Of a stretch of 64,000 nucleotides of DNA, positions 15,637 to 46,830 are shown one piece after another. The first letter of the stretch is position 1. Each line of letters starts with the position of its first letter. The stretch spans positions 7,713 to 71,712 of the forward strand of contig JBBIGP010000004.1 in assembly GCA_037447475.1 (NCBI GenBank). The letters run 5' to 3'. The stretch is from Candidatus Aminicenantes bacterium (GTDB lineage: Bacteria; Acidobacteriota; Aminicenantia; Aminicenantales; Saccharicenantaceae). A program made the position numbers and the translations under genes. A model generated the notes under the pieces. The model saw only the letters and a list, made by a program, of their open reading frames with translations, made no database searches and was not told where the DNA came from.

Positions 15637-16152
15637 TTAGGGTTTATCCTCGCCGGCCTTCAAGAGATCGAAATCCTTGAAGGACCTGATGACGTTTCCC
15701 GTGAACTCGCCCAGCCCGCTCTTGATCGAGCCCGCCTCGGCGTAGAGCTTCTCGACCGTGCCGACGCCCCGGTGGAGCTGGACGTCGATCGTTTTCCGGA
15801 CGGCCTGTCCCTCCGGGTGGAAGAGGACGAAGGACAGGGCGACGAGCAGGACGGTGAACGCGGCGTAAACGGGCTGGAGGGCGGGCCGGACCAGGAGGTC
15901 GATCGCCGCCCGGACGCCCCTTTTCCTCCCGGCTCTCTCGCCGGGGATCCCGTACAGACGGGCCATGAGGGCGGGGGAGGGCTCGGCCTCGGGGAAGACG
16001 GCCATGGCCCCGGTCACCTCCCGGAGCGCCTCCAGCAGCCCCGCGCAATCGGGGCAGGCGGCGAGATGGATTTCCGTCTCGGCCCGCTCCGCGGCGCCCA
16101 GCTCGCCCTCGAGGTAGGCGGAGAGAAGCCCTTCGACGCGTTCGCAGGTCAT
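15637..16152 (-). CDS. Anti-sigma factor, zf-HC2 type, single TM
   Basis: ATG 16152 overlaps the sigma-factor stop (ATGA). MTCERVEGLLSAYLEGEL...HLAACPDCAGLL is the HxxxCxxC zinc motif, followed by one TM helix. Confidence 0.8.
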   Translation of the reverse strand: MTCERVEGLLSAYLEGELGAAERAETEIHLAACPDCAGLLEALREVTGAMAVFPEAEPSPALMARLYGIPGERAGRKRGVRAAIDLLVRPALQPVYAAFTVLLVALSFVLFHPEGQAVRKTIDVQLHRGVGTVEKLYAEAGSIKSGLGEFTGNVIRSFKDFDLLKAGEDKP

Positions 16153-16703
16153 GACGTCCCTCCCTTGGCTTCCCGGAGGACCCGGGCCAGCTGGATCCGG
16201 GCCCGGTTGACGCGCGACTTGACCGTGCCCAGCGGCAGGCCGAGCAGGCCGGCCATCTCCTCGTAGCTGTGCCCCTGCAGGTCCCTCAGGACGATGACCG
16301 TCCGCATCTCCGGCGACAGGCGATCGAGCCCCTGCCAGACGAAGGCCTTGGTCTCCTTGTCGGCGAGGCTCTCCTCCGGGCCGTCGGCGGCGGCGTGGGC
16401 CAGGACGCGTTCGTCGAACTCGTCCCGCCGGGCGCGCTCCCATTTGGTCCGGCGGTACTCGTCGATGAGGTGATTCTTGGCCAGGGTCAGGAACCAGGCC
16501 TGGAAGTTCTTGGCGGGGTCGTACTTGGGCAGGGCCCCGTGGAGCTTGAGGAAGACCTCCTGGGTCATGTCCTCGGCCTCCTGCCGGCTCCCGCTGAACT
16601 GATAGGCCATGTTAAAGATCCTCCCGGCGAACTGGTCCACCAGCGTTCTCCATGCTCCCTGGCTCCCGGCCAGGCACTGGCTGACGACTTCGCTCAAATC
16701 CAC
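16149..16703 (-). CDS. ECF (sigma-70 family group 4) RNA polymerase sigma factor
   Basis: 184 aa, GTG start. Region 2 (FNMAYQFSGSRQEAEDMTQEVFLK, AWFLTLAKNHLIDEYRR) and region 4 HTH (SYEEMAGLLGLPLGTVKSRVNRAR). Confidence 0.9.
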   Translation of the reverse strand: MDLSEVVSQCLAGSQGAWRTLVDQFAGRIFNMAYQFSGSRQEAEDMTQEVFLKLHGALPKYDPAKNFQAWFLTLAKNHLIDEYRRTKWERARRDEFDERVLAHAAADGPEESLADKETKAFVWQGLDRLSPEMRTVIVLRDLQGHSYEEMAGLLGLPLGTVKSRVNRARIQLARVLREAKGGTS

Positions 16704-34576: not shown

Positions 34577-34799
34577 TCCGGCGTTTCGTTCGGGAAGAAA
34601 AGGGCGGCGACGTCTTCTTTTCGGCGGCGAGCACCCCGGCGGCCATGAACCCCCGGGGGGACATCTCCTGGATCCAGACCCGGATCGTCTCGAGAGGGGC
34701 GCCGATGGATTCGTGGACGGCCTCCGTGACGGCCGCGAGCAGGGCCTTCTTCTGATCGTCCGTCCGGCCTTCGAGGAGGTGGATCTCGATGAGCGGCAT
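34566..34799 (-). CDS. 4-oxalocrotonate tautomerase family protein
   Basis: MPLIEIHLLEGRTDDQKKALLAAVTEAV with catalytic Pro1. Overlaps the 3' end of the OMP gene by 11 nt (convergent). Confidence 0.8.
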   Translation of the reverse strand: MPLIEIHLLEGRTDDQKKALLAAVTEAVHESIGAPLETIRVWIQEMSPRGFMAAGVLAAEKKTSPPFSSRTKRRIRS

Positions 34800-34906
34800 G
34801 GGCGGCTCCTTTCGGGCCTATTCTATCAAAAAAGGGGCAGTGATTCCGGCGCGCGGTTGACTTTGGCCAGGGCTTCTGATAAACAAATGAGCGAAGGCGG
34901 GCCATC

Positions 34907-35254
34907 ATGACCATAGCGACCCGAGACACGGACGGCGTTGTCATTTTCGACATCACGGGCGAGATCCGGCGCTCCGACAACATGGAAACGACTCTCCATC
35001 ACCTCGTCAAGTCCCACCTCGACCGGGGCAAGCGCAGGATCATGCTCAACTTGGAGAAGGTCGATTTCATCGACAGCTTCGGCGTCGGCGAGATCCTCGC
35101 TAGCTACATCTCCACCCAGAACCTGGGCGGGAGGTTCAAGCTCTTCAGCATCTCGAAAAAGCTCCTCCTCATCTTCCAGATCACGATGCTGACCAAGGTC
35201 CTCGACATCTACGAGGACGAGGGCTGCGCCCTGCGGAGTTTCGAACAGGCGTGA
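34907..35254 (+). CDS. STAS-domain protein (anti-sigma-factor antagonist, SpoIIAA/RsbV-like)
   Basis: 115 aa. VVIFDITGEI...IMLNLEKVDFIDSFGVGEIL carries the DSxG phosphorylatable-Ser motif. Confidence 0.85.
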   Translation: MTIATRDTDGVVIFDITGEIRRSDNMETTLHHLVKSHLDRGKRRIMLNLEKVDFIDSFGVGEILASYISTQNLGGRFKLFSISKKLLLIFQITMLTKVLDIYEDEGCALRSFEQA

Positions 35255-35281
35255 CCGGGCCGGCGCTGAGCGCGACGCTCC

Positions 35282-37849
35282 ATGCCTGACGACGGCCGGC
35301 TGAACAGGTTCCTGAACCGTTTCGGCTTCGCCGATGTCCGCGTCCCCGAAACGCGGGCCGTGTCCTATCTCTTCGCCCTCTTCTTCCTGACGACATTCTC
35401 GTTCTACATCATCAAGCCGGTCAAGGAGACCTTCCTCATCGGGGTGACTCCCGCCTGGTGGCCGTACGCGGACCTGGCCACGGCCCTGCTCATCGGCTTC
35501 GTCGTGGCCCTCAACGCCAGGCTCCTCAACCGCCTTCCGCGGCGGGCCTACTTGACGGGGACCGTCCTGTTCTTCGCCGCCTGCTTGTTCGTCTTCTGGT
35601 ACGTTTTCGACGCCGCCCTGCAGCTCCAGATCCGGACGCCCGTGATCCACTCCTCGGCCATTTTCGGCGTCATTCCCTTCCAGGTCGCCGTCCGCAACAT
35701 CTGGCCCCTTCCGGTGTTCGCCTTCAGCTTCTTTTCCGATGTCTTCATCGCCATGTCCGTCACCCAGTTCTGGATCGCGGTCAACGATACCCTCGATCCC
35801 TACCAGGCGAAGAGGACGGTCGGCCTGTTCGTCTCGGGGGGGCTGTTGGGCGGGATCGCCGGCGCCCTCCTGACGTCCCTCCTCGTCCGCGTCGTCGGCC
35901 CCGAGAACCTTCTCCTCGCCTGCCCCGGCATCCTCCTCGTCGTCCTGGCCGCCGTCCGCCTCGTCTACGGCGAGCAGAAAAAGCACAGGGGGGAGGCCGA
36001 GCCCTCGGCATCCCCGCCCAAGGCCCGGGTCGGCTACCTGGAGAGCTTCGGCGCCGTCCGGAGGAACAGGTATCTCCTGCTCCTGGCCGGGCTCCTGGCC
36101 TCGGCCATGGTCGCCGGGTCGCTCATCAACTATCAGTTCAAGATCGTCGTCAAGAGCGTCTTCGCGAGCAGCGTCGACCGGACCTCGTTCCTGGGCTCGT
36201 TCTTCTTCGCCATTCTCGTCCTCTCGACCCTTTTCCATCTGGCCGCCACGCGCCTCGTCCTGAAGAATTTCGGCATCCGGCTGGCCCTCCTCGTGGCCCC
36301 CGTGGTCCTGCTCCTCGGCTCGCTCTCGGTCTTCCTCCTCCCGGCCGGCGCCCTGATGGCCTGGGCCAGTCTCGTCAGGGGCGGCGACAAGATCTTCGAC
36401 AACACGATCGGCCAGTCGGTCCGGGAGCTGCTCTACATCCCCGTCCCGGACGAGATCAAGTACAAGGCCAAGATCTTCATCGACATGTTCGTCAACAAGT
36501 TCGCCGTCGGGCTCGGGGCCGGGCTGTTCCTCCTGCTCTACCACGCGTCGCGCTTCGCCTACAAGGCCGAACCGGCGCAGGTCCGGGAGGTCGGCGTCCT
36601 GGCCGTCGCCTTCATCGCCCTCTGGATGGTTCTCACGGGCGTCGTCTACGGGGAGTACCCGAGCGTCGTGAAGAAGGACCTGGCCCGCAAGTGGAAGGAC
36701 GCCGACAAGGTCGTCGAGGAGAGCGTGGACGTCGATGTGACCCGCCGCGTCTTCGACACCGTCCAGAGCCGGGAGCGGAGCGCGACCCTGTACGTCATGA
36801 ACGTCTTCGACCTCATGCGCCGCGGCCGCCTCAGCCCCGAGCTCAAGGAGCTCTTGGGATCCCAGAGGGACGAGCTCAGGGCCCGGTCCATGGACTGCTT
36901 GTTCGACGTCGGGGGAGAGGTCTTCTTCCAGGGGTTCGAGGAGGCCATCGCCGACGAGGACTTCGGGAAAGAGGTCGAGAAGGTCATCCAGTCGGACGAT
37001 TACAAGGCCCTCATGGAGGGACGCCTCGAGACGGTCGCCGGGTCCGCGTCGGAGATCGAGCGCATGGAAGCGGCCAGGCTCATCGGGATGATGGACCCGA
37101 CGCCCCGGGCCATGAGGGTCCTGAGCGTCCTTCTCCAGGACCCCTCGTCCGAGGTCGCAACGTACGCCCTCGACAGCGCGGCGATCCACCGGAGGAAAGA
37201 GCACATCCCCCTGGCTCTCTCCCAGCTGAGCAATCCCTTGACCTGCCAGGGCGCCCAGGCCGCCTTGGCCGCCTACGGCCCGGCCGCCGAGGAGGCCCTG
37301 AGAGCGGCCCTCCAGGACGAAGACCTGCCCCCCGGCGTCCGCCGGGCCATCCCCGATGTCCTGGGCCGGATCGGGACCCAGCGGGGGGCCGACATCCTTC
37401 TCGCCGAGCTCGGGAGGTGCGGCGAGGACATGGAGCCGGAGATTGTCGGAGCCCTTTACAGGATCCGCTCCGCCCGGCCGGGCGTTCTGTTCAAGGAGAA
37501 GAAGGTCCGTCCCGAGATCCTCCGCCTGGTCAGGAAAGCGGGGGAGATCTTCCTCGAGAGGGTCCTGGACGGACAGGACCCCGGCGCCACGGCGGCCCTC
37601 GACCTTCATGTCAAGCGGATTTTCGACCTGCTGACGCTCGTCCAACCGGCCGAGGACGTCGTCAAGGCCTACCAGAACATCCTTCAAGGGACGAAGCGGT
37701 CTGTCGATTATTCCCTCGAGCTTCTCGACAACCTGCTCGATCGGGAGCTCAAGAGGGCCCTCTTCCCGCTCCTCGAGGACCTCCCGCCCGAGGACAGGAG
37801 CGTCCGGCTGAGAAAGGCCCTTCGGGGCCTCGGCCGGGGCCGGGGTTGA
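35282..37849 (+). CDS. TLC/NTT-family (ATP/ADP translocase-like) transporter fused to C-terminal HEAT-repeat domain
   Basis: N-terminal ~440-aa polytopic domain with TLC signatures (FSFYIIKPVKETFLI; DNTIGQSVRELLYIPVPDEIKYKAKIFIDMF). The cytoplasmic tail has HEAT/PBS-lyase-like repeats (LQDPSSEVATYALDSAA; DEDLPPGVRRAIPDVLGRIG). Confidence 0.85.
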   Translation: MPDDGRLNRFLNRFGFADVRVPETRAVSYLFALFFLTTFSFYIIKPVKETFLIGVTPAWWPYADLATALLIGFVVALNARLLNRLPRRAYLTGTVLFFAACLFVFWYVFDAALQLQIRTPVIHSSAIFGVIPFQVAVRNIWPLPVFAFSFFSDVFIAMSVTQFWIAVNDTLDPYQAKRTVGLFVSGGLLGGIAGALLTSLLVRVVGPENLLLACPGILLVVLAAVRLVYGEQKKHRGEAEPSASPPKARVGYLESFGAVRRNRYLLLLAGLLASAMVAGSLINYQFKIVVKSVFASSVDRTSFLGSFFFAILVLSTLFHLAATRLVLKNFGIRLALLVAPVVLLLGSLSVFLLPAGALMAWASLVRGGDKIFDNTIGQSVRELLYIPVPDEIKYKAKIFIDMFVNKFAVGLGAGLFLLLYHASRFAYKAEPAQVREVGVLAVAFIALWMVLTGVVYGEYPSVVKKDLARKWKDADKVVEESVDVDVTRRVFDTVQSRERSATLYVMNVFDLMRRGRLSPELKELLGSQRDELRARSMDCLFDVGGEVFFQGFEEAIADEDFGKEVEKVIQSDDYKALMEGRLETVAGSASEIERMEAARLIGMMDPTPRAMRVLSVLLQDPSSEVATYALDSAAIHRRKEHIPLALSQLSNPLTCQGAQAALAAYGPAAEEALRAALQDEDLPPGVRRAIPDVLGRIGTQRGADILLAELGRCGEDMEPEIVGALYRIRSARPGVLFKEKKVRPEILRLVRKAGEIFLERVLDGQDPGATAALDLHVKRIFDLLTLVQPAEDVVKAYQNILQGTKRSVDYSLELLDNLLDRELKRALFPLLEDLPPEDRSVRLRKALRGLGRGRG

Positions 37850-37850
37850 A

Positions 37851-40034
37851 ATGGCCGGACGCGTCGTCTACAATGAGGGCGCAGGGGATGACATGCCCGA
37901 CTTCTACGTCTATCCCAAGACGGGCGATCCGTTCACCGTGCCGCTGAAGCCCGGCAAGATCACCATCGGCCGGGCGCCGACGAACGACCTCGTCCTTTCC
38001 GACCAGTTCAGCTCGGGATGTCACGCCTCCGTCTATCCGACGACAAGCGGATTCGTCCTTCTCGATCACGGCAGCAAGAACGGCACGTTCGTCAACGGCA
38101 AGAAGGTCACGGGGGAGATCCTCCTGGCCCGGGGGGACGAGATCCTCATCGGCTCGACGAGGATCTACTTCGACCGGGAGTTCCAGAGCAGCATCGAGAT
38201 GGTCGAGGGGACGACCTTCACCCACAGCTCGAACACCATCATCCAGGTCAAGGACATCCTGAAGAAGGCCCCCACGGCCGGCGACTACAGGACGCCCGGA
38301 GGGGAGCTCGACCTGGGGAAGCTCCAGCAGGAGCAGAAGATGATCGCGGTCATGGGGGAGGTCAGTCAGGCCCTCATCTACCACATGCCCCTCGACAAGC
38401 TGCTCAACCACATCATGGACGTTCTCATCCAATACCTGCCCATGGACCGGGGCGTCCTGATGCTCAAGGACCCGGCGACGGGCGAGCTCGCCCACAAGGT
38501 CGTCCGCGTCCAGAGCGGGTCCCTGAGGACGCAGAACATCGCCATCAGCAAGACCATCGTCCAGACCGCCGTCGAGAAGAACTCGGCCATCCTGCTGTCC
38601 GACATCCGGTCGGACGAGAGGTTCGGCGGCCAGGCCAGCGTCATCCAGGCCCAGATCCATTCGGCCATGTGCATCCCCCTCTGGAACAACCAGAACATTC
38701 TCGGGCTCATCTACGCCGACCGGGCCTCCCTCGTCGAGCAGTTCACGGAAGACGATCTGAAGCTGCTGACCCTGCTCGCCAACCTGGCCGCGGTCAAGAT
38801 CGAGAACGCCCGGCTCTACGAGAATTCCCTCAAAATGGAGCAGATGGAGCGCGAGATGGCGATGGCCGTCCAGATCCAGAAGAACTTCCTGCCCCGGGGG
38901 AACCCGTGGTTCGAACCCTACGACGTCAGCGGCAGCATGCGGGCCTGCCACCACGTCGGCGGGGACTACTACGATTTTCTGCCCGAGGCCGACGACCGGC
39001 TGGGCATCGTCATCGCCGACGTCTCGGGGACGGGGGTCAGCGCGGCCCTCCTCATGGCCAACCTGAGGGGGGCCCTGACCGAGAAGTTCCCGGTCACGCC
39101 GGACCTGGGCGAGCTGGTCGCCAAGCTCAACGACTTCGTCCATTCGAGCTCGGACAGCCATTGCTTCATTTCTTTTTTCCTGGCCGTCCTGGACCGCGCC
39201 CGGGACAGGCTGACCTACGTCAATGCCGGCCACAACCCCCCCCTGCTCGCGGACGATCGCGGCCGGATCAGCCGGCTCGAGAGCACGGGTCTCTGTCTCG
39301 GCATGTTCCCGGCCCGGGCCTACGAGCAGCGGACGATCGACCTCGGGCCGGGGGACGTGCTGTGCCTCTACACGGACGGGATCGTCGAGGGCCGGAACAA
39401 GGGCGGGGAGGAATTCGGGGAGGAGAGGCTCGCGGGGATCCTCCGGTCCGCCGCGGCCATGCCGGCCCGGGGGATCATGGAAAGGATCTACGAGGAGGTC
39501 CTCGCCTTCACGGACTGCTCCGCGGCCGGCGACGACATGACCCTCGTCGTCGTCCGGAAGAACCCGCGGCGGGAGGACGGCGAACGGTCTTCGACGGAAA
39601 GGGACGTGCGGGAGATCCGGGTCCCCGCCGCTCTCGAAGCCGTCGACCGCGTCAGGGAGTTCCTCCGGGCCTACATGGGCGAGCAACGGGTCCCCGACGA
39701 GGAGGCCCTGGCCGTCGAGCTCTCGCTCCACGAGATCTGCGTCAACATCGCGATGTACGCCTACTCCGGGGGTCCGGCGGGAGAGATGGCCGTCCGGATC
39801 TGGAACGATGACGGCATGCTGTTCCTCGAGATCCGCGACCGGGGCGTCCCCTTCGACCCCGCGGGAAAGCCGGACCCCGACCTTCTCGTCAAGGTCCGCC
39901 GCGGGCAGCGGGGCGGATTAGGCGTCTTTTTCTTCAAGACCCTCATGGACGGCTTCACTTACCGCCGGGAGAACGGGGAGAACGTCCTGACCGTCCGCAA
40001 GCGGATCCCGCCCCGGCCCGCTCCGGTTCAGTAG
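37851..40034 (+). CDS. Multidomain signalling protein: FHA - GAF - PP2C/SpoIIE phosphatase - RsbW-like HATPase
   Basis: FHA (ITIGRAPTNDLVLSD...GSKNGTFVNG). GAF (DRGVLMLKD...LGLIYADR). SpoIIE (VGGDYYDF, ADVSGTGVSAAL, NAGHNPP, LYTDGI). HATPase_c_2 (LHEICVNIAMYAY, IRDRGVPFD, GGLGVFF). ATG 37893 is an alternative start. Confidence 0.9.
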   Translation: MAGRVVYNEGAGDDMPDFYVYPKTGDPFTVPLKPGKITIGRAPTNDLVLSDQFSSGCHASVYPTTSGFVLLDHGSKNGTFVNGKKVTGEILLARGDEILIGSTRIYFDREFQSSIEMVEGTTFTHSSNTIIQVKDILKKAPTAGDYRTPGGELDLGKLQQEQKMIAVMGEVSQALIYHMPLDKLLNHIMDVLIQYLPMDRGVLMLKDPATGELAHKVVRVQSGSLRTQNIAISKTIVQTAVEKNSAILLSDIRSDERFGGQASVIQAQIHSAMCIPLWNNQNILGLIYADRASLVEQFTEDDLKLLTLLANLAAVKIENARLYENSLKMEQMEREMAMAVQIQKNFLPRGNPWFEPYDVSGSMRACHHVGGDYYDFLPEADDRLGIVIADVSGTGVSAALLMANLRGALTEKFPVTPDLGELVAKLNDFVHSSSDSHCFISFFLAVLDRARDRLTYVNAGHNPPLLADDRGRISRLESTGLCLGMFPARAYEQRTIDLGPGDVLCLYTDGIVEGRNKGGEEFGEERLAGILRSAAAMPARGIMERIYEEVLAFTDCSAAGDDMTLVVVRKNPRREDGERSSTERDVREIRVPAALEAVDRVREFLRAYMGEQRVPDEEALAVELSLHEICVNIAMYAYSGGPAGEMAVRIWNDDGMLFLEIRDRGVPFDPAGKPDPDLLVKVRRGQRGGLGVFFFKTLMDGFTYRRENGENVLTVRKRIPPRPAPVQ

Positions 40035-40921
40035 AGGACCTTCTCTTCTCCGTTCATCCTGACGAGCCTGTCGATCTCCTTGAGGACGAGGTCCCTGCGG
40101 ACGAGCACGGCCTTGATCTCCTCGTCCGTGAGGTACTCGCCCACGACGCCCTTGACGGCCTCGGCATCGAGCGTCTTGATCTTGTCGACGATGGCCCGGG
40201 GCAGCTCGCTCATGAGCTTGGGGCCTTCCTTGTGCTTTTCCGTGTAGATCAGGCTCTTCGTGAACTTCCCCGAGGCCCGGAAGGACCGGGAGTGGTCGAT
40301 GAGGATCATCCGCCAGTCGGGCTGGGTGATGAGGATCTGGTTCTGGTGGCGGTCCTCGTTGGCGATGAGATTGTCCCAGAACCGCTGCAGGTAGGTCGCC
40401 CGGTTCCAATAATAGACCCTGATGGGCGGGACCTTGAGGTTCTTCTGCTCCTTGTCGCGGAGCGTGATGCAGTCCTCGACCCAGAGCTGGCAGGACCCGC
40501 GCTCCGCGCGGTAACGTCGCTCGACGGTCGGGGGGACCATGTTGAGCCCGAGGTGCTTGTCGAGGAGATAGGCGGCGACCTCGTAGTTCCAACCCTCCCA
40601 ATACCCGCCCATCCGGCCTTGGGCGTTCTTCCACAGGGCCCGGTGGGACACGTCGTCCTTTTTCAGGGTCAGGACCCAGGGGCTGGTCACGGATTCCCTT
40701 CCTGTCATCTGCCGGCTGTCGACGACCTCGGCCGTCCTCAGGAACTCCTCCCACTTCTCCCGCTCGGCCAGGTCTTCGGGCGTGAACTGGGCGGCGCCGA
40801 GTCGCGGGGCCGGCCCTCCGGGGCCGTTGGCCGGGCTCATGGCGTGGCCCAGGAGGACCACGGACAAGACGCCGGCGGCGATGGCGCCGGACACGATGGA
40901 TACGATCGCGGACTTTTTCAT
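40028..40921 (-). CDS. Exported PI3/PI4-kinase-like (type II PI4K-like) protein, paralogue 1
   Basis: Signal/anchor MKKSAIVSIVSGAIAAGVLSVVLLGHA. Motifs RALWK, EVAAYLLDKHLGLNMVPPT, GSCQLWVED, NLIANEDRHQNQILI, WRMILIDHSRSF. Strong GGGAGGG SD. Confidence 0.7.
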   Translation of the reverse strand: MKKSAIVSIVSGAIAAGVLSVVLLGHAMSPANGPGGPAPRLGAAQFTPEDLAEREKWEEFLRTAEVVDSRQMTGRESVTSPWVLTLKKDDVSHRALWKNAQGRMGGYWEGWNYEVAAYLLDKHLGLNMVPPTVERRYRAERGSCQLWVEDCITLRDKEQKNLKVPPIRVYYWNRATYLQRFWDNLIANEDRHQNQILITQPDWRMILIDHSRSFRASGKFTKSLIYTEKHKEGPKLMSELPRAIVDKIKTLDAEAVKGVVGEYLTDEEIKAVLVRRDLVLKEIDRLVRMNGEEKVLY

Positions 40922-40970
40922 TCTTCCCTCCCTGATCTATCCGGTCGATGGCCCAGCCATCTCCTCTCCC

Positions 40971-41807
40971 TCAGTAGAGGACGGCGGCTTCGCCCTGTTC
41001 CCGGACCATCTGGCGGATCTCCTTGAGCAGGAGGTCGCGGCGGGCCAGTACGGCCCGGATCTCCTCGTCCGTGAGGTACTCTCCCACAGCGGCCCGGATG
41101 GTCTCGAACGATAACTCCCGGATCCGGTCCACGAACGAGCGTGGCAGGCGCCGGAAGAGGAACGGCGTCCCCTGCATGGACGTCTGCAGGCCCCGCTGTC
41201 CGAACATCAGCCTTTTCGTGTGCTCCTTCGTCGCGCGGAACGACCGCGAGTGGTCGATGAGGATCATCCGCCAGTCCTCGGTGTAGAGGATGTTCTGCTG
41301 GTTCCGGTCCTCGTTGGCGATGAGACTGTCCCAGGCGCGGGTCAGCCACTTCATCTTTTCCGTGTGTTCCGTCACGGAGTCGGGAATGCGGATGTTGTTG
41401 TCGACGATCTTTTCCAGGCTGTGCTTGTTCTCGGCCCAGAGGACGAGGGCGCCGCTCTGTCCCTGGAACTCCCGCTCGACGGCCGGTGGGATCATGTTCA
41501 AGCCGATGAGCTTGTCGAGGCGGTAGGCGGCGATCTCGAATCGCCAGCCCTCGTAGAAGCCCAGCTGCATGCCGCTCGGGTTCTTCCAGCAGGCCGCCGC
41601 CTCGCGGTCTCCCTGTTTGAGAGTGAGCTTGAAGGGCTTGGTCACCCCTTCGCCGATCTCCTTGAAGCCGGCGATCTCGGCCGTCCTCAGGAACTCCTCG
41701 AACGCTTCTCTCGCGGCGATCTCGTCCGGGGTGAATTGCCCGAACAGGGCGGCCGGAGCCGCTATGAGCAGGAGAAGGCAAACGGCGGCCCGAAACGCAC
41801 ATATCAT
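40971..41807 (-). CDS. Exported PI3/PI4-kinase-like (type II PI4K-like) protein, paralogue 2
   Basis: Start re-picked at ATG 41807 (GGAGGA SD 7 nt upstream): MICAFRAAVCLLLLIAAPAALFG. Motifs AACWK, EIAAYRLDKLIGLNMIPPA, ALVLWAEN, SLIANEDRNQQNILY, WRMILIDHSRSF. Confidence 0.7.
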   Translation of the reverse strand: MICAFRAAVCLLLLIAAPAALFGQFTPDEIAAREAFEEFLRTAEIAGFKEIGEGVTKPFKLTLKQGDREAAACWKNPSGMQLGFYEGWRFEIAAYRLDKLIGLNMIPPAVEREFQGQSGALVLWAENKHSLEKIVDNNIRIPDSVTEHTEKMKWLTRAWDSLIANEDRNQQNILYTEDWRMILIDHSRSFRATKEHTKRLMFGQRGLQTSMQGTPFLFRRLPRSFVDRIRELSFETIRAAVGEYLTDEEIRAVLARRDLLLKEIRQMVREQGEAAVLY

Positions 41808-41915
41808 CGAATCTTCCTCCGATGGCACCCTGATGCTCCTATCATAAGGAGGGTCAAGGGGGAAATCAAGCCCAGCCCGAGCCCCGTTTCCGCTTCGTGT
41901 GGCCGTCGAGGGGGA

Positions 41916-43406
41916 TCAGGCTTTGGCAAGGGCATCCTGGGCGGTCTTCCGCCTTCGGTAGGCGGGAATGATCTTGAGACAGATGCCGATCAGGACGGCC
42001 ACGGCGAAGACGTTGAGGAGAGCGTAGTTTTCGATGTGAAGTCCGAGAAGGTGGACGCCGATGAGGACGGCCAGCGCTGAAAGCGTGTCTCCCCCCCTGA
42101 CAAAGAAGGTGTCGATAGCCGCCTTGGCTTTATACTTCTCCTCCCGCTTGGTGACCAGGAACAGCGCGGCCTTGGTCGTATTCTGAAGGGAATAGTCGGT
42201 GCCGTTCTCGAAGGCCTTGACCCAGCGGACGAGCACGAGAACGGCTCCGAAGGAAATCAGCGTGTAGCCGCCCAGGGCGATGAGAGGAAGGAAGAGCAAG
42301 GCCCCTCCCACGCCGATCCACTTGAAGATGCGCGAGACCAGGAAGAGCTGGATGATGAGGGCGATCAGATTGGTCAGGAACTGGTAGTTCATGAATGCGC
42401 TGTGAATGGCCTTGCTCTCCGTTCCGGCGGGCAAGGCCGGGGACGCCGCCGGGCGCTTCCGATCGGCTCCATCGTCGGGAAGCGGGACGAGCCGGCCCCG
42501 CGGGCCTCCCGCGGCTCCATCGGCTATCGACTCCCTGACCGTGACGGCGGTGATGATATATTCCCCGGTCGCATTGATGAAATTATAGAGGCCGATCATG
42601 GCCGCGATGAGAAGAAGGTAGCGGCTCTTGAAGATCAGCCGGAACCCTCCTCCCGCTCTTAGCGGCTGTTCACTGGCGACGCTTTCCTCCTCGGCCTTGG
42701 CCAGGCCCTTTTCGCGGGCCTCGCGGGTGTCCCGGACGGCCCGGTTGTGGATATGCCAGGCCAAGGCGATGCAGAGCAGCAGGATGAGGCCCGCGATGAG
42801 CATGAGCTCGTATTCCCAGTTCTCCCCCAGGATATCCCTCAACCGCTTCATGATCGGCAAGGTCGCGACGAGCCATCCGAGCGTGGCTCCCAGGGCGACG
42901 AGCGGAAACGTGCGCTTTCCGACCTCGTCCGAATAGAGGTCGTTCGCGAAGCCCCAGAACTGGGCGATCACGAAATAATTGAATATGCCGATCCAGATGA
43001 AGAACATGATCCCCATGGGCTTGACGGCCATCCCGCTCAAGTTGAGGAAATAGAAGACGACGAGGTTGGAGATGAAGAATGATGTTGTCCAAGTGATAAG
43101 GATATGCCGAGGCACCCTGGAAGCGAGGCGACTGAATGCCTTGATGACGAAGATGAAGAGAACGGCTTGGGCCCCGCTCAGGTAGCTCTTGACTTGAGGG
43201 GAACCCTGGTCAACAAGGAGAAGCGACTCGCGCAGCGGCTTGAGGATGTAGTAGGCCAGAAGCAAAAGAAAGATGTTGAGGGCGAGCAGGAGGGCCTTCA
43301 GGGCTTCCCCCTTGCGGACGTCGGCGAACAGCCTGAGGAAGCCGTAGCCGATGTTCGAAGTAGCGCCGCCCGACGGCGGGATCCCCCCGCGGATTCTATC
43401 CCCCAT
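41916..43406 (-). CDS. TLC/NTT-family (ATP/ADP translocase-like) nucleotide transporter
   Basis: 496 aa, polytopic. LLLAYYILKPLRESLLL; IAQFWGFANDLYSDEVGKRTFPLVALGATLG; DYSLQNTTKAALFLVTKREEKYKAKAAIDTF. These match remembered Rickettsia Tlc motifs (FWQFANQI..EAKRFY; KYSLFDATKNMAYIPLD..KGQAAVE). Confidence 0.85.
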   Translation of the reverse strand: MGDRIRGGIPPSGGATSNIGYGFLRLFADVRKGEALKALLLALNIFLLLLAYYILKPLRESLLLVDQGSPQVKSYLSGAQAVLFIFVIKAFSRLASRVPRHILITWTTSFFISNLVVFYFLNLSGMAVKPMGIMFFIWIGIFNYFVIAQFWGFANDLYSDEVGKRTFPLVALGATLGWLVATLPIMKRLRDILGENWEYELMLIAGLILLLCIALAWHIHNRAVRDTREAREKGLAKAEEESVASEQPLRAGGGFRLIFKSRYLLLIAAMIGLYNFINATGEYIITAVTVRESIADGAAGGPRGRLVPLPDDGADRKRPAASPALPAGTESKAIHSAFMNYQFLTNLIALIIQLFLVSRIFKWIGVGGALLFLPLIALGGYTLISFGAVLVLVRWVKAFENGTDYSLQNTTKAALFLVTKREEKYKAKAAIDTFFVRGGDTLSALAVLIGVHLLGLHIENYALLNVFAVAVLIGICLKIIPAYRRRKTAQDALAKA

Positions 43407-43427
43407 GTCGACCTCCCTCCGGGACGC

Positions 43428-45311
43428 TCAGATCAGGACATGGCCCTCCCCGCGGGTCTCGATGAGCCTTTTGATGATCCGGATGATGAGGTCACGGCGG
43501 GAATGGAGGGCTTCGATCTCTTCTTTGTCGAGATGGGGCGACAGAAGGAGGAAGACCGCCTTCCTGTCCCACCCCAGGAGCTTGCCGAAGAGGTCTTTCG
43601 AGCACTTGCGGATCTCGCATCCGGGCGGAAGGCTCTTCCGGGGCGCGAAGGCTTCCGAGAAATCGACGCGGTAGATCCGCTGGTCGTCGCGGCTGACGAG
43701 CACGTCCCGGTCGTTGTCGCACTCTTCGTGGACGAGCATCTCGAAGAGCCGCAGGTCTTCCCGGTCCCGCTCGAAGGCCGCGGGCCGGGCCGGGGCGAGC
43801 TTCTGCTCCTTCCAGTCGAATTCCGAGATGGCGTTCTCGACGAAGACCTGCAGGGAGCCGGGGATCCCGTCGATCTCCCGCTCGATGACAGGCGGGACGA
43901 ACGCCAGCTTGAGGTACTTGGCGAGGTCGTAAGCGGCCAGCTCGTAGCGGTAGCTGTCGGGGAGCGGGTGAGGGCGGCGCCGGTCGATGTACTTGAACAT
44001 GGCCCTGCGCGTGACGCCGTCCTTCTCGAGGGTCACCCGCCAAGGCTCCGTCCGCCCGGCGGCGGCCGTCTTGCGGGCCATGGCCTTGGCCGTCCTGAGG
44101 AACTCCTCGACGGCTTTGGCCGAAGCGAGCGGTTCCGGGCGGGTGACGACCGGAGAGCTGCGGGCGGCGGCCTCTTCCGTCTCGCCCCAGAGCTCGAACC
44201 GTCCGTCCTCGTAGATGAGGGCCGCGGGCAGGCCGCCGTAAAACTCGGAGATCCCGGTGTCGATGACGAAGACCTTGCCGCCGAAGCGGCTGACGGTCTC
44301 GAGGGTCGCGATGGGGCTCGACCCGGCGTTGTTGACAGGCAGATAGCTGTGGCCGACGACGATGGCCCGGGCCCCGAGGTTGTCCAGGATACGGTCGACC
44401 TCGGCCTGAGCGGTGCCTTCGATATGGGTCGTCAGGCCCCGGAACCAGACCGGGCCGTCCGGCGCGTAGACGAGCTTGGGCTTGAAGGGCCTAAAATAGC
44501 GATGAGGGGACTTGATCCTCTCCCGGAACTCCTCGAGCTCCTTTCTCATGAGGTCGTTCGTCTCGCGCAACGGCCGTTTCGAGTAGTGCTCGTTGACGCC
44601 CCCGTGGAGGTAGACGACGTCGTTGATCTTGATGATGGTGTTCTTCGTCAGCAGCCAGCTTCCGTACAGGTCGTTGAAGGCGTTGACATAGGCCAGGCGG
44701 GCCTCCCGGTCGTGGCGGATGACACGCTGCCAGTAGGCCCGCAGAGCTTCGTCCGTCCCGAGATCCAGGCCCTCGGCCTCGGCCTGGCGGCGCCGGTCGC
44801 GGGGGAGCCTGGCGATGTAGGCCGCTTCCAGGGACCTGCGGACGCCGTCCGGGAGGAAGGAGACGAACTGCTCGGGCGTGACGTACTGAGGATAGTCCAG
44901 GGCGATGCCGGTGATGTTCATCTCCTCGTGGTTGCCGATGAGGACGTGGACCAAGCCGCCGGCCGCCTCGGCTTCCTTTTCGAGGCGCATGAGAAGGTCC
45001 ATGATCTTCCTGGCGTCGGGGCCGCGGTCCATGATGTCGCCGAGCTGGACGAGGTGGGCCGTCCCGGCGGTCCATCGGAGGTCCGCGTCGATGACGCCGA
45101 CCTCGGGGTTCGAGAGGATGAAGACGAACCGGTCGTAGTCGCCGTGCAGGTCGCCGACGGCGACGACGCGGCCGACGCCGGACCAGGCATAGGGGATCTC
45201 GGAGGCGGGAGAGAGCGGGACATGGAGCAGGATGAGCAGGAGAAGAATAAACAGACCTTTGAGGGGCCGACATGGGGCCTGTCGCGACCATCCCCTGCTG
45301 CGTTCGGGCAT
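43428..45311 (-). CDS. Exported PPP/calcineurin-type metallophosphoesterase fused to a degenerate PI4K-like domain
   Basis: Signal-like N-terminus (LKGLFILLLLILLHVPLSPA). GDLHGD, GDIMDRG, GNHE, LHGG and VGHS motifs in residues ~50-325. Residues ~395-627 are homologous to the two downstream kinase-like proteins but carry DNDRDVLV / YRVDFSEAF. Confidence 0.8.
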   Translation of the reverse strand: MPERSRGWSRQAPCRPLKGLFILLLLILLHVPLSPASEIPYAWSGVGRVVAVGDLHGDYDRFVFILSNPEVGVIDADLRWTAGTAHLVQLGDIMDRGPDARKIMDLLMRLEKEAEAAGGLVHVLIGNHEEMNITGIALDYPQYVTPEQFVSFLPDGVRRSLEAAYIARLPRDRRRQAEAEGLDLGTDEALRAYWQRVIRHDREARLAYVNAFNDLYGSWLLTKNTIIKINDVVYLHGGVNEHYSKRPLRETNDLMRKELEEFRERIKSPHRYFRPFKPKLVYAPDGPVWFRGLTTHIEGTAQAEVDRILDNLGARAIVVGHSYLPVNNAGSSPIATLETVSRFGGKVFVIDTGISEFYGGLPAALIYEDGRFELWGETEEAAARSSPVVTRPEPLASAKAVEEFLRTAKAMARKTAAAGRTEPWRVTLEKDGVTRRAMFKYIDRRRPHPLPDSYRYELAAYDLAKYLKLAFVPPVIEREIDGIPGSLQVFVENAISEFDWKEQKLAPARPAAFERDREDLRLFEMLVHEECDNDRDVLVSRDDQRIYRVDFSEAFAPRKSLPPGCEIRKCSKDLFGKLLGWDRKAVFLLLSPHLDKEEIEALHSRRDLIIRIIKRLIETRGEGHVLI

Positions 45312-45430
45312 CTGTATCCCTTATACACGTTTTTGTGGTGGGAATCAACGGCTTGGCCGTCCACGATGCGTGTCATCGATAGACACCACGGGACCGGTCG
45401 TTTCCCATCAGGGGAGTGGAGCCGAAAGAA

Positions 45431-45460
45431 TTGACTCCGCCGCCGGGCCCCTGATATCCT
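45431..45460 (+). promoter_or_regulatory. Candidate promoter (TTGACT-N18-TGaTATCCT) for the DUF1343 gene
   Basis: TTGACT at 45431-45436 and TATCCT at 45455-45460 with an upstream TG. Motif match only. Confidence 0.3.
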
Positions 45461-45477: not shown

Positions 45478-46830
45478 GTGACGAAAGGACGGTGGACCGT
45501 GCGTTTCGGATCGTTCGTTGGTGTCATAGGGCTTGTGGGAATGTTTGTCGTTCTTGCCGGGGTTTCCGGCTGCAGGGGAGGCGGGCGGCCGGTCCCCTCC
45601 GAGGATGTCGCTGTGACGGTCAAGCCGGGCGTCGAGGTCTTCCTCGAGAGATATGTCGGGCTCGTGGAGGGCAAGCGCGTCGGCCTGATCACCAACCCGA
45701 CGGGAGTGGATGGGCGCCTGCGGTCGACGGTGGACCTGTTCGCCGGGAGCCCCGATATCGACCTGGTCGCGCTCTATGGCCCCGAACACGGCGTCAGGGG
45801 GAACGCGCAAGCCGGCGAATACGTGCCGTTCTACATCGACGACAAGTACGGTTTGCCCGTTTTCAGCCTCTACGGACAGTCGTTCAAGCCCCCGCCGGGC
45901 ATGCTCAAGGACATCGACGAGCACATGCGGTCGTTCGACACGGACATCGCCGGGAAGGTCCCCGAGAAAGCCATGGTCGAGAGCGTCGACGTCCTCGTCT
46001 TCGACGTCCAGGACGTGGGGACGAGGGTCTACACCTATATCGCCACCATGGCTTACGCGATGCAGGCGGCGGCCGAGAGCGGCATCGAGGTCATCGTCCT
46101 GGACCGCCCGAACCCCGTCAACGGCGTGGACATGGAGGGGCCGATCCTGGAGTATCCCGCATTCAGCTCGTTCGTCGGGCTCTATCCCGTCCCTGAGCGC
46201 TTCGGCATGACGATGGGCGAGCTGGCCCTGCTCTTCAACGACAGGTTCCTGGAGAAGAAGGCCCGTCTGACGGTCGTCGCCATGGAGGGCTGGAAGAGGC
46301 CGATGTGGTTCGACGATACGGGACTGCCCTGGATCATCCCTTCGCCCAACATGCCGACCCTCGACACGGCCACGGTCTATCCGGGCCAGGTCTATATCGA
46401 GGGGACGAACATGTCGGAAGGCCGGGGTACGACCCGGCCGTTCGAGCTGTTCGGAGCGCCTTGGATCGACGGCCACGAGCTGGCGAAAAGGCTCAACGGG
46501 CTCGGCTTGCCGGGCGTCGTCTTCCGGGAGACCTGGTTCACGCCGTGGTTCTCCAAGTTCCAAGGGCAGCTCTGCGGAGGCTGCCAGGTCCATGTCACGG
46601 ACAGGGAGGCATACCGGTCGTTCGGGACCGCGCTGCACGTCATCAAGACGGTCCGGGACATGTATCCGGACAAGTTCGCCTTCCATGCGGACTACTTCGA
46701 CAAGGTCATGGGGACGGACAAGGTCCGCCGGGCTCTCGAAGCGGGGGAGACCGTCCCAGCGATCCTCGAGAGACTGGAGCCCGGGCTGGCCGCCTTCGCC
46801 GCGCTCCGCCGCCCGTATCTGCTCTATTAG
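45478..46830 (+). CDS. DUF1343 family lipoprotein (NamZ-like exo-beta-N-acetylmuramidase family)
   Basis: Lipobox LAGVSGC. GLITNPTGVD, ALYGPEHG, VLVFDVQDVGTRVYTYI, IVLDRPNP and PSPNMPT are typical DUF1343 motifs. GTG start (45478, or 45499). Confidence 0.85.
   Translation: MTKGRWTVRFGSFVGVIGLVGMFVVLAGVSGCRGGGRPVPSEDVAVTVKPGVEVFLERYVGLVEGKRVGLITNPTGVDGRLRSTVDLFAGSPDIDLVALYGPEHGVRGNAQAGEYVPFYIDDKYGLPVFSLYGQSFKPPPGMLKDIDEHMRSFDTDIAGKVPEKAMVESVDVLVFDVQDVGTRVYTYIATMAYAMQAAAESGIEVIVLDRPNPVNGVDMEGPILEYPAFSSFVGLYPVPERFGMTMGELALLFNDRFLEKKARLTVVAMEGWKRPMWFDDTGLPWIIPSPNMPTLDTATVYPGQVYIEGTNMSEGRGTTRPFELFGAPWIDGHELAKRLNGLGLPGVVFRETWFTPWFSKFQGQLCGGCQVHVTDREAYRSFGTALHVIKTVRDMYPDKFAFHADYFDKVMGTDKVRRALEAGETVPAILERLEPGLAAFAALRRPYLLY

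Follow-up and report, generated by a model that had tools for sequence, protein, structure and literature searches.

A STAS partner-switching module paired with a TLC-HEAT transporter gene in Candidatus Aminicenantes

Gene and protein content of the module

Positions 34907-40034 of a 64,000 nucleotide (nt) stretch of contig JBBIGP010000004.1, referred to here as the window, carry a compact module of three genes from an uncultured sediment bacterium (Candidatus Aminicenantes, Acidobacteriota). The three genes are all transcribed rightwards (Table 1). The first encodes a STAS protein, the second a transporter in which a TLC-type membrane domain is joined to a tail of HEAT repeats (TLC-HEAT), and the third a phosphatase of FHA-GAF-PP2C architecture that in this genome continues into an RsbW-type HATPase kinase domain. 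We consider here whether this set of proteins forms a phospho-switch that acts on the transporter rather than on a sigma factor.

The three open reading frames (ORFs) are found at exactly the coordinates given in a preliminary description made from the sequence alone, and both the 27 nt between the STAS and transporter genes and the 7 nt overlap between the 3' end of the third gene and that of the convergent ORF 40028-40921 are as reported there. The third gene was described as following the transporter gene after 1 nt, but its translation probably begins at the ATG at 37893 (Met15) and not at 37851, which widens the gap to 43 nt. This start is preferred because a Shine-Dalgarno sequence (AGGGGA) lies 4-5 nt upstream of the ATG, an independent gene call on the identical Logan contig selects the same codon, and the first possible start codon of many orthologous ORFs aligns with Met15. 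A divergently transcribed tautomerase gene leaves about 100 nt of promoter space 5' of the STAS gene. We also note a sigma-70-like promoter match on the plus strand at 37846-37874 (TTGAAA, 17 nt, TACAAT; 10/12), which runs across the stop codon of the transporter gene and the earliest start codon open to the third gene; two such promoter-like sites occur in 6 kb where 0.5 are expected. If translation begins at 37893, the phosphatase-kinase gene could have an internal promoter of its own in the match at 37846-37874.

Searches against Pfam place STAS, TLC, HEAT, FHA, GAF, PP2C and HATPase domains all above their gathering scores, in agreement with the domain assignments first made from the sequence alone. 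The STAS gene product scores 42.8 bits against Pfam STAS and 59.9 bits against NCBIfam TIGR00377, the anti-sigma factor antagonist superfamily (cutoff 53.45). It is a single-domain STAS protein, and the phosphorylatable DSFG motif attributed to it is present within FIDSFGVGE. The serine of this motif (Ser58) is invariant in 43 orthologues and in a further STAS alignment (A5).

The transporter gene product matches Pfam TLC with 47.2 bits (gathering score 21) and MFS_1 with 40.3 bits. An AlphaFold2 model of the full-length protein has a mean predicted local distance difference test score (pLDDT) of 70.9, with only moderate confidence in the membrane domain. When the model is compared with the PDB using Foldseek, the NTT1 ATP/ADP translocators of Chlamydia pneumoniae and Arabidopsis occupy ranks 1-5 and generic MFS transporters come next; the best matches, 9j3n and 9j3l, have TM-scores of 0.71-0.74 normalised to the target at 19-21% identity. 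A search of PDB sequences with the family profile retrieves the same NTT1 chains (E=2e-13 to 9j3n), and the alignment covers the TLC signature region, which reads SVRELLYIPV...KYKAKIFIDMF in the window protein and STKEMAYIPL...KVKGKAAIDVV in 9j3n.

The substrate is a separate matter. The preliminary description assumed nucleotide exchange, which we treat as a hypothesis because the protein reaches only 35.2 of the 387.2 bits that NCBIfam TIGR00769 (NTP/NDP exchange transporter) has as its cutoff, and is only 19-21% identical to NTT1. Within the NTT signature E..YIP...K.K.K..ID...FGKSGGA, the lysine of FGKSGGA is replaced by valine in the window transporter (FAVGLGA); this lysine probably corresponds to a residue implicated in ATP recognition. 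The transporter should not be labelled as an ATP/ADP antiporter in annotation.

The C-terminal tail matches Pfam HEAT_2 with 36.5 bits at residues 650-708. Modelled alone from 41 sequences it gives a confident HEAT solenoid (pLDDT 83.6, predicted template modelling score 0.79), so that a TLC membrane domain fused to a HEAT-like tail, as originally described, is seen both in Pfam matches and in structural prediction.

The motifs expected of the enzymes encoded by the third gene are intact. The PP2C motifs GGD, DVSG.G, NAGH, TDG and DD are kept in 37 orthologues; the N-box (HE...N) and the D.G and GG.G glycine boxes of the kinase are kept in 38, and the FHA core (GR, S..H, NGT) is kept in orthologues as well. 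In searches of PDB sequences the kinase domain matches RsbW (6m36) and SpoIIAB (1til), and the third gene product also matches a Pseudomonas aeruginosa RssB-type PP2C response regulator and GarA/OdhI. The fused phosphatase-kinase Rv1364c of Mycobacterium tuberculosis is matched over residues 369-665, and for the FHA domain of the window protein that of Rv1747 (6cah) ranks with the best matches in PDB sequences. These closest solved relatives are consistent with a working, phosphothreonine-reading kinase-phosphatase pair for the STAS protein.

A more complex relationship is seen in the joining of the two enzymes. The presence of PP2C and HATPase in one polypeptide behind FHA and GAF domains was correctly recognised in the window and recurs in its 90% identical relative at locus L001, but it is not a conserved feature of the module. 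In 36 of 38 sequences (37 loci and the window) the FHA-GAF-PP2C protein ends at about residue 565-572 and the HATPase is a separate ORF of 138-152 amino acids (aa), which overlaps the PP2C ORF by 4 nt or lies up to about 25 nt downstream of it, with the exception of a 160 nt gap in L021 and L022. The fusion is also carried by an independent Logan assembly of the window sequence and is therefore not an assembly error. Judged by its distribution, it is a recent, lineage-specific event and not a design principle, and the separate HATPase in 36 of 38 sequences points to an ancestral operon of four genes: STAS, TLC-HEAT, FHA-GAF-PP2C and RsbW-like kinase.

Conservation of the STAS-transporter pair

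The gene set was compared among relatives in both directions. In the forward direction, a scan of one genome per GTDB species yields 48 loci, all in Aminicenantes, whose transporters are 41-91% identical to that of the window; the counts for each gene (Table 1) are taken over the eligible loci, which are those with enough flank. The TonB-dependent receptor and epimerase genes upstream and the glutamine-synthetase-like gene downstream are common only to the closest relatives, so that the block has been retained while its surroundings have not.

Table 1. Features of the STAS module and adjoining genes, with their occurrence at related loci.
Feature	Coordinates	Strand	Extent	Match or remark	Present at related loci
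4-oxalocrotonate tautomerase family gene	34590-34802	-		divergent from STAS	33/40 loci; 71-97% identical where found; absent from deep variants
STAS gene	34907-35254	+	115 aa	directly upstream of transporter	40/40 eligible
TLC-HEAT transporter gene	35282-37849	+	855 aa		
Membrane domain, 12-helix MFS fold of TLC/NTT type	35282-36688	+	residues 1-469		
HEAT-repeat tail, presumed cytoplasmic	36689-37849	+	residues 470-855		
Third gene, FHA-GAF-PP2C-HATPase ORF	37851-40034	+	727 aa	as opened at 37851	
FHA-GAF-PP2C part of third gene	37893-39557	+		Pfam; downstream of transporter	39/40 eligible
FHA domain	37959-38153	+		Pfam, 61.4 bits	
GAF domain	38391-38801	+		Pfam, 62.4 bits	
SpoIIE/PP2C domain (PF07228)	38991-39557	+		Pfam, 172.6 bits	
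RsbW-type HATPase_c_2 serine-kinase domain (PF13581)	39621-40034	+		Pfam, 90.2 bits	37/39 eligible (RsbW-like kinase)
Kinase-like gene 1	40028-40921	-		convergent with module, syntenic	35/37 eligible
Kinase-like gene 2	40918-41802	-		paralogous to kinase-like gene 1	31/35 eligible
Second TLC-family transporter gene	41916-43406	-	496 aa	Pfam TLC, 60.3 bits; without HEAT tail	29/34 eligible
Metallophosphoesterase-kinase-like fusion	43428-45311	-	627 aa	Pfam Metallophos, 42.8 bits; first gene of operon	31/33 eligible

In the reverse direction, 80 metagenome loci were retrieved with the STAS protein alone, and 75 of these have at least 300 nt downstream. A TLC-HEAT gene starts less than 400 nt downstream of the STAS gene in 74 of the 75, mostly at a distance of 17-98 nt, and the transporters found in this way fall into four or more TLC-HEAT subfamilies, in one of which the remaining members are without STAS. 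The transporter is thus the conserved partner of the STAS protein and not a sporadic neighbour (40 of 40 genome loci and 74 of 75 metagenome loci). Many loci with clear Aminicenantes orthologues, including L001, L004 and L007, lie in records titled 'uncultured Eubacteriales bacterium' (TPA_asm bins), a title that seems to be either a stand-in or a mistaken taxonomic assignment.

The STAS protein changes little even where the transporter has diverged. Across loci with divergent transporters it is still 115 aa in length, shares 58-63% identity with the window protein and keeps the motif DSFGVGE[IV]LASYIST without variation, and the transporters next to it are only 32-38% identical to the window transporter. 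The transporter gene is tandemly duplicated in L038, L041, L055 and L057; in L041 and L057, for which the downstream flank is available, both copies still lie between the STAS and phosphatase genes. These two loci have no HATPase gene and carry instead a Hanks-type Pkinase-TPR gene immediately upstream of STAS.

A further departure is seen in L053 (contig Ga0366835_1001459, 3196-8394), the transporter of which is 32% identical to that of the window by BLASTP (34% in the HMMER listing). Its gene order is RsbW-like kinase, ATP sulfurylase, adenosine phosphosulfate (APS) kinase, STAS and TLC-HEAT, with no PP2C gene nearby, and S-adenosylmethionine synthetase and S-adenosylhomocysteine hydrolase genes are positioned divergently upstream. 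These neighbours raise sulfate, APS or 3'-phospho-APS (PAPS) as candidate substrates or signals for the L053 subfamily. Taken over all these arrangements, gene order indicates that STAS and TLC-HEAT are the constant pair and that the enzymes predicted to write and erase the phosphate are interchangeable.

What the switch may control

The comparative evidence strongly supports a functional coupling of the STAS module and the transporter. The reading that we favour, to which we give a probability of about one half, is that the module is a transporter-centred phospho-switch and not a sigma-factor switch, with the phospho-state of the STAS protein gating the NTT-like transporter. Control of the transporter rather than of a sigma factor is the most likely arrangement because the STAS-transporter pairing is almost invariant across relatives. 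The interpretation in the preliminary description is to this extent borne out in part, in that the transporter is the conserved partner of the STAS switch.

A plausible cycle would run as follows. The RsbW-type kinase domain, or the Hanks-type kinase in the sister clades, would use ATP to phosphorylate Ser58 of the STAS protein, and the FHA-GAF-PP2C phosphatase would remove the phosphate. The activity of the phosphatase would be set by a small-molecule ligand of the GAF domain and by docking of the FHA domain on phosphothreonine, a mark that in the sister clades would probably be made by the adjacent Hanks kinase. The phospho-state of the STAS protein would then decide whether it is seated on the kinase or on the transporter, where the HEAT tail would be its most likely docking site, and transport would thereby be switched on or off. 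RsbW-type kinases are sensitive to the ATP/ADP ratio, and the module could therefore couple transport to energy status. More tentatively, we suggest that the free-standing STAS protein may be a trans-acting, phosphorylation-controlled subunit of the NTT-like MFS transporter, docking on the HEAT tail.

The operon encodes no sigma factor, as the preliminary description stated, and when group 1-3 sigma factors are sought in all six frames by the motif of their region 2.2, none is found either in the window or across the roughly 700 kb of the 48 related loci. A hit to an extracytoplasmic function (ECF) motif at 16.5 kb corresponds to an ECF sigma factor gene (16149-16703, minus strand; 184 aa, with Sigma70_r2 and r4_2), followed immediately downstream by a zf-HC2 anti-sigma gene and then by a gene for a LiaF-like membrane protein (15637-16703 in all, minus strand). 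By its gene organization this is a self-contained ECF sigma/zf-HC2 pair, 18 kb from the STAS module and unrelated to it, and its sigma factor is the only one detected in the window. No sigma factor is seen as the conserved partner in the 48 genome loci, and neither there nor in the 75 metagenome loci is the transporter only sporadically adjacent. Moreover, the Hanks-kinase loci (L057 and L041) have no anti-sigma-type protein, so that an anti-sigma mechanism cannot be the conserved function. We caution that STAS and RsbW genes of this type should not be labelled automatically as sigma-factor regulators.

Several observations weigh against control of the transporter. In L046 (7556-10670) the transporter ORF diverges after residue 777, and the phosphatase and kinase are absent within 8 kb. 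In L100 (1866-2956) the STAS gene is followed after about 260 nt by the phosphatase gene, with the transporter absent between them. The TLC-HEAT paralogues of L050, L052 and L056, from the same lineage, have no adjoining STAS gene, and three distant NTT-HEAT loci that were sampled have a cyclic-nucleotide-binding domain or a Pkinase-TPR gene and no STAS. All of the evidence for coupling is gene order in a single class, Aminicenantia, and could in part reflect shared ancestry; the search for sigma factors was likewise confined to the window and the loci, which are a part of each genome.

In the leading alternative, the transporter would be the input of the switch, with its tail recruiting the phosphatase, the kinase or both, such that flux of substrate sets the STAS phospho-state for a target encoded elsewhere, whether a sigma factor, an enzyme or another protein. 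Cases in which a transporter senses together with a signalling protein are well established (DctA/DcuS, BceAB/BceS), and the tight conservation of the gene set fits this arrangement as well as it fits control of the transporter. The ancestral kinase is a free-standing RsbW-like protein of about 140 aa, similar to canonical anti-sigma factors, and FHA domains are known on the regulated transporter Rv1747 that is matched here. We nonetheless consider it unlikely that the transporter is the input, since the block contains no conserved candidate output gene, the Hanks-kinase variants are without any anti-sigma-type protein, and it is the STAS protein, not the enzymes, that stays with the transporter.

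The constancy of the STAS protein can also be read in another way, as that of a transporter subunit with a constitutive role, structural or activating (compare the STAS domains of SLC26/SulP, and MlaB), on which phosphorylation is a minor or lineage-specific modulation. No other partner is as conserved or as constant as the STAS protein, the kinases and phosphatases present differ from locus to locus, and there are precedents in MlaB (PMC7367683) and in the SLC26 STAS domain, which has a role in transporter stability and function (PMC8256260). The phosphorylatable serine and its DSFG context are invariant, however, and a kinase of some type, a PP2C phosphatase or both accompany the pair wherever the flank suffices, and a purely constitutive role thus seems rather improbable.

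A last alternative is a canonical anti-sigma partner switch that acts on a sigma factor encoded elsewhere, in which case the transporter gene would be no more than co-transcribed with the module, whether because it belongs to the regulon or because the gene order was inherited. This reading draws on the fact that STAS, RsbW-like and RsbU-like proteins are annotated by default, and often function, as sigma regulators (as in the NCBIfam matches here) and that all loci come from one class, but we consider it very unlikely in view of a pairing that survives transporter divergence to about 32% identity, tandem transporter duplication, replacement of the RsbW-like kinase by a Hanks kinase and loss of PP2C from the neighbourhood, of a block kept while flanking synteny is lost, and of the lack of any group-3 sigma factor in about 700 kb of related loci.

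Neighbouring genes and related systems

The module is met by a convergent minus-strand operon (40028-45311) that encodes, in order of transcription, a metallophosphoesterase/kinase-like protein, a second TLC-family transporter (TLC2) and two kinase-like proteins, with three paralogous atypical kinase-like domains in all. In most Aminicenantes this operon keeps its synteny with the STAS module, and it could represent either a further layer of phospho-signalling or a pathway of small-molecule kinases. The kinase-like genes match the SCO1664 family TIGR03843 with 44.8 bits, below the cutoff, with weak matches to PI3_PI4_kinase and HipA_2, and searches of PDB sequences with the two kinase-like proteins (40028-41802) give no usable match. 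The product of 43428-45311 has an N-terminal calcineurin-like metallophosphoesterase domain and a C-terminal kinase-like domain paralogous to that of 40028-40921; in L057 and L038 these two halves are separate adjacent genes beside the module. The plus-strand ORF 43104-45434 (776 aa, in DNA of 65% GC) was rejected as a shadow ORF, having no family match and 'homologues' that are antisense to real genes.

Two TLC paralogues in close proximity in a free-living genome had been thought unusual. This is not supported, since free-living bacteria widely carry both NTT and NTT-HEAT genes (PMC5381601) and synteny of the second TLC gene is kept in 29 of 34 relatives. A related arrangement occurs in L050 (6398-10535), in which a 474 aa single-domain TLC protein, 48% identical to TLC2 of the window, is encoded divergently beside a STAS-less paralogous TLC-HEAT gene; pairs of a short TLC and a TLC-HEAT gene thus recur at two paralogous Aminicenantes loci. 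At the far end of the syntenic block is a gene for a NamZ-type exo-beta-N-acetylmuramidase (45478-46830, plus strand; PF07075 268.8 bits, PF20732 195.4 bits), 59-83% identical in about 30 loci, and its presence hints that recycling of cell-wall sugars, and not nucleotides, might be what the kinase-like and transporter genes beside it are concerned with.

The TLC-HEAT architecture itself is already known. Major, Embley and Williams (2017, Genome Biol Evol) described NTT-HEAT proteins as a monophyletic, widespread and functionally uncharacterised clade (PMC5381601), present in many free-living bacteria; their dataset contains one Aminicenantes NTT sequence, for which the architecture is not stated. 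NTT-HEAT proteins often have a cyclic-nucleotide-binding domain fused to or trailing them, and a regulatory role was proposed for the appended domains; PMC5381601 makes no mention of STAS, PP2C or RsbW-like neighbours, and in our literature searches no study was found that connects an NTT-type transporter with a partner-switching module. The window transporter therefore has the same N-terminal TLC/NTT and C-terminal HEAT organization as this clade but differs in its regulator, with STAS, FHA-GAF-PP2C and serine kinase in place of the cyclic-nucleotide-binding domain.

The family is a large one, with 609 clusters at 50% identity (E<=1e-30). Distant NTT-HEAT proteins of 900-1250 aa carry a cNMP_binding domain or have it encoded by the next gene, and some distant NTT-HEAT genes have a Pkinase-TPR gene alongside; no Pfam cNMP_binding match is found in the window transporter or its neighbours. 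These distant relatives point to a regulated transporter family, and as the cyclic-nucleotide-binding domain of the distant relatives and the GAF-containing enzyme of the window occupy the same post-HEAT position, the comparison suggests that control by second messengers or metabolites is general among NTT-HEAT transporters. We also note that a Hanks-type Ser/Thr kinase with TPR repeats adjoins TLC-HEAT genes in L021, L022, L038, L041, L052, L055, L056, L057 and L058, among them a STAS-less TLC-HEAT gene (L056) and one of the distant type fused to a cyclic-nucleotide-binding domain (L058), and may be a second recurrent regulator of the family.

NTT-HEAT transporters of cyanobacteria, Chlamydiae, deltaproteobacteria and oomycetes have had no function or regulation assigned since their description in 2017, and the near-obligate STAS pairing in Aminicenantes offers a concrete, testable handle on them. 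If the proposed switch is correct, it would provide a first regulatory logic for the family, with transport gated by energy charge and second messengers, and a membrane transporter would join the non-sigma outputs of partner-switching modules.

Close parallels are the RsbV/RsbW/RsbU and SpoIIAA/SpoIIAB/SpoIIE systems, with which the module shares a STAS protein with a phosphorylatable serine, a PP2C phosphatase and a HATPase_c_2 kinase, the motifs being intact in each. In comparison with these systems, the module has no sigma gene and a transporter gene stands between STAS and phosphatase; the phosphatase has FHA and GAF inputs, and sister loci exchange the RsbW-like kinase for a Hanks kinase. 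Partner-switching modules with non-sigma outputs are known (PMC8256260; bioRxiv 10.64898/2026.04.08.717354), and SypE/SypA of Vibrio fischeri, HsbR/HsbA of Pseudomonas, BtrU/V/W of Bordetella and HenR/All4160 of Anabaena all use a STAS phospho-switch on a non-sigma target. The output is in each case a glycosyltransferase or a regulator of biofilm, flagella or secretion, and none is a membrane transporter. SypE, HsbR and Rv1364c of M. tuberculosis combine PP2C and HATPase in one polypeptide, as does the window protein; however, the input domains of the non-sigma systems are receivers whereas the window protein begins with FHA-GAF, and the window fusion is recent and not a conserved feature of its family.

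Attachment of STAS to a transporter is also known from other systems. An ABC transporter is under the control of the STAS protein MlaB (PMC7367683), and in both MlaB on MlaFEDB and the C-terminal STAS domain of SLC26/SulP the STAS fold is physically attached and is needed for transporter function or regulation. Neither is known to be cycled by a dedicated kinase-phosphatase pair, and SLC26 and ABC transporters belong to families other than that of the NTT-like MFS transporter with a HEAT tail seen here. In Rv1747, an ABC transporter with FHA domains that is regulated by the Ser/Thr kinase PknF, FHA and phosphothreonine are linked to a transporter as in the window, but the FHA domains are on the transporter itself, whereas in the window it is the phosphatase that bears the FHA domain, and the transporter has the HEAT tail. 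The module would, if it acts as proposed, bridge anti-sigma antagonists functionally to the transporter-attached STAS domains of SLC26/SulP, and would unite in one system the two terms, 'sulfate transporter' and 'anti-sigma antagonist', from which STAS historically takes its name.

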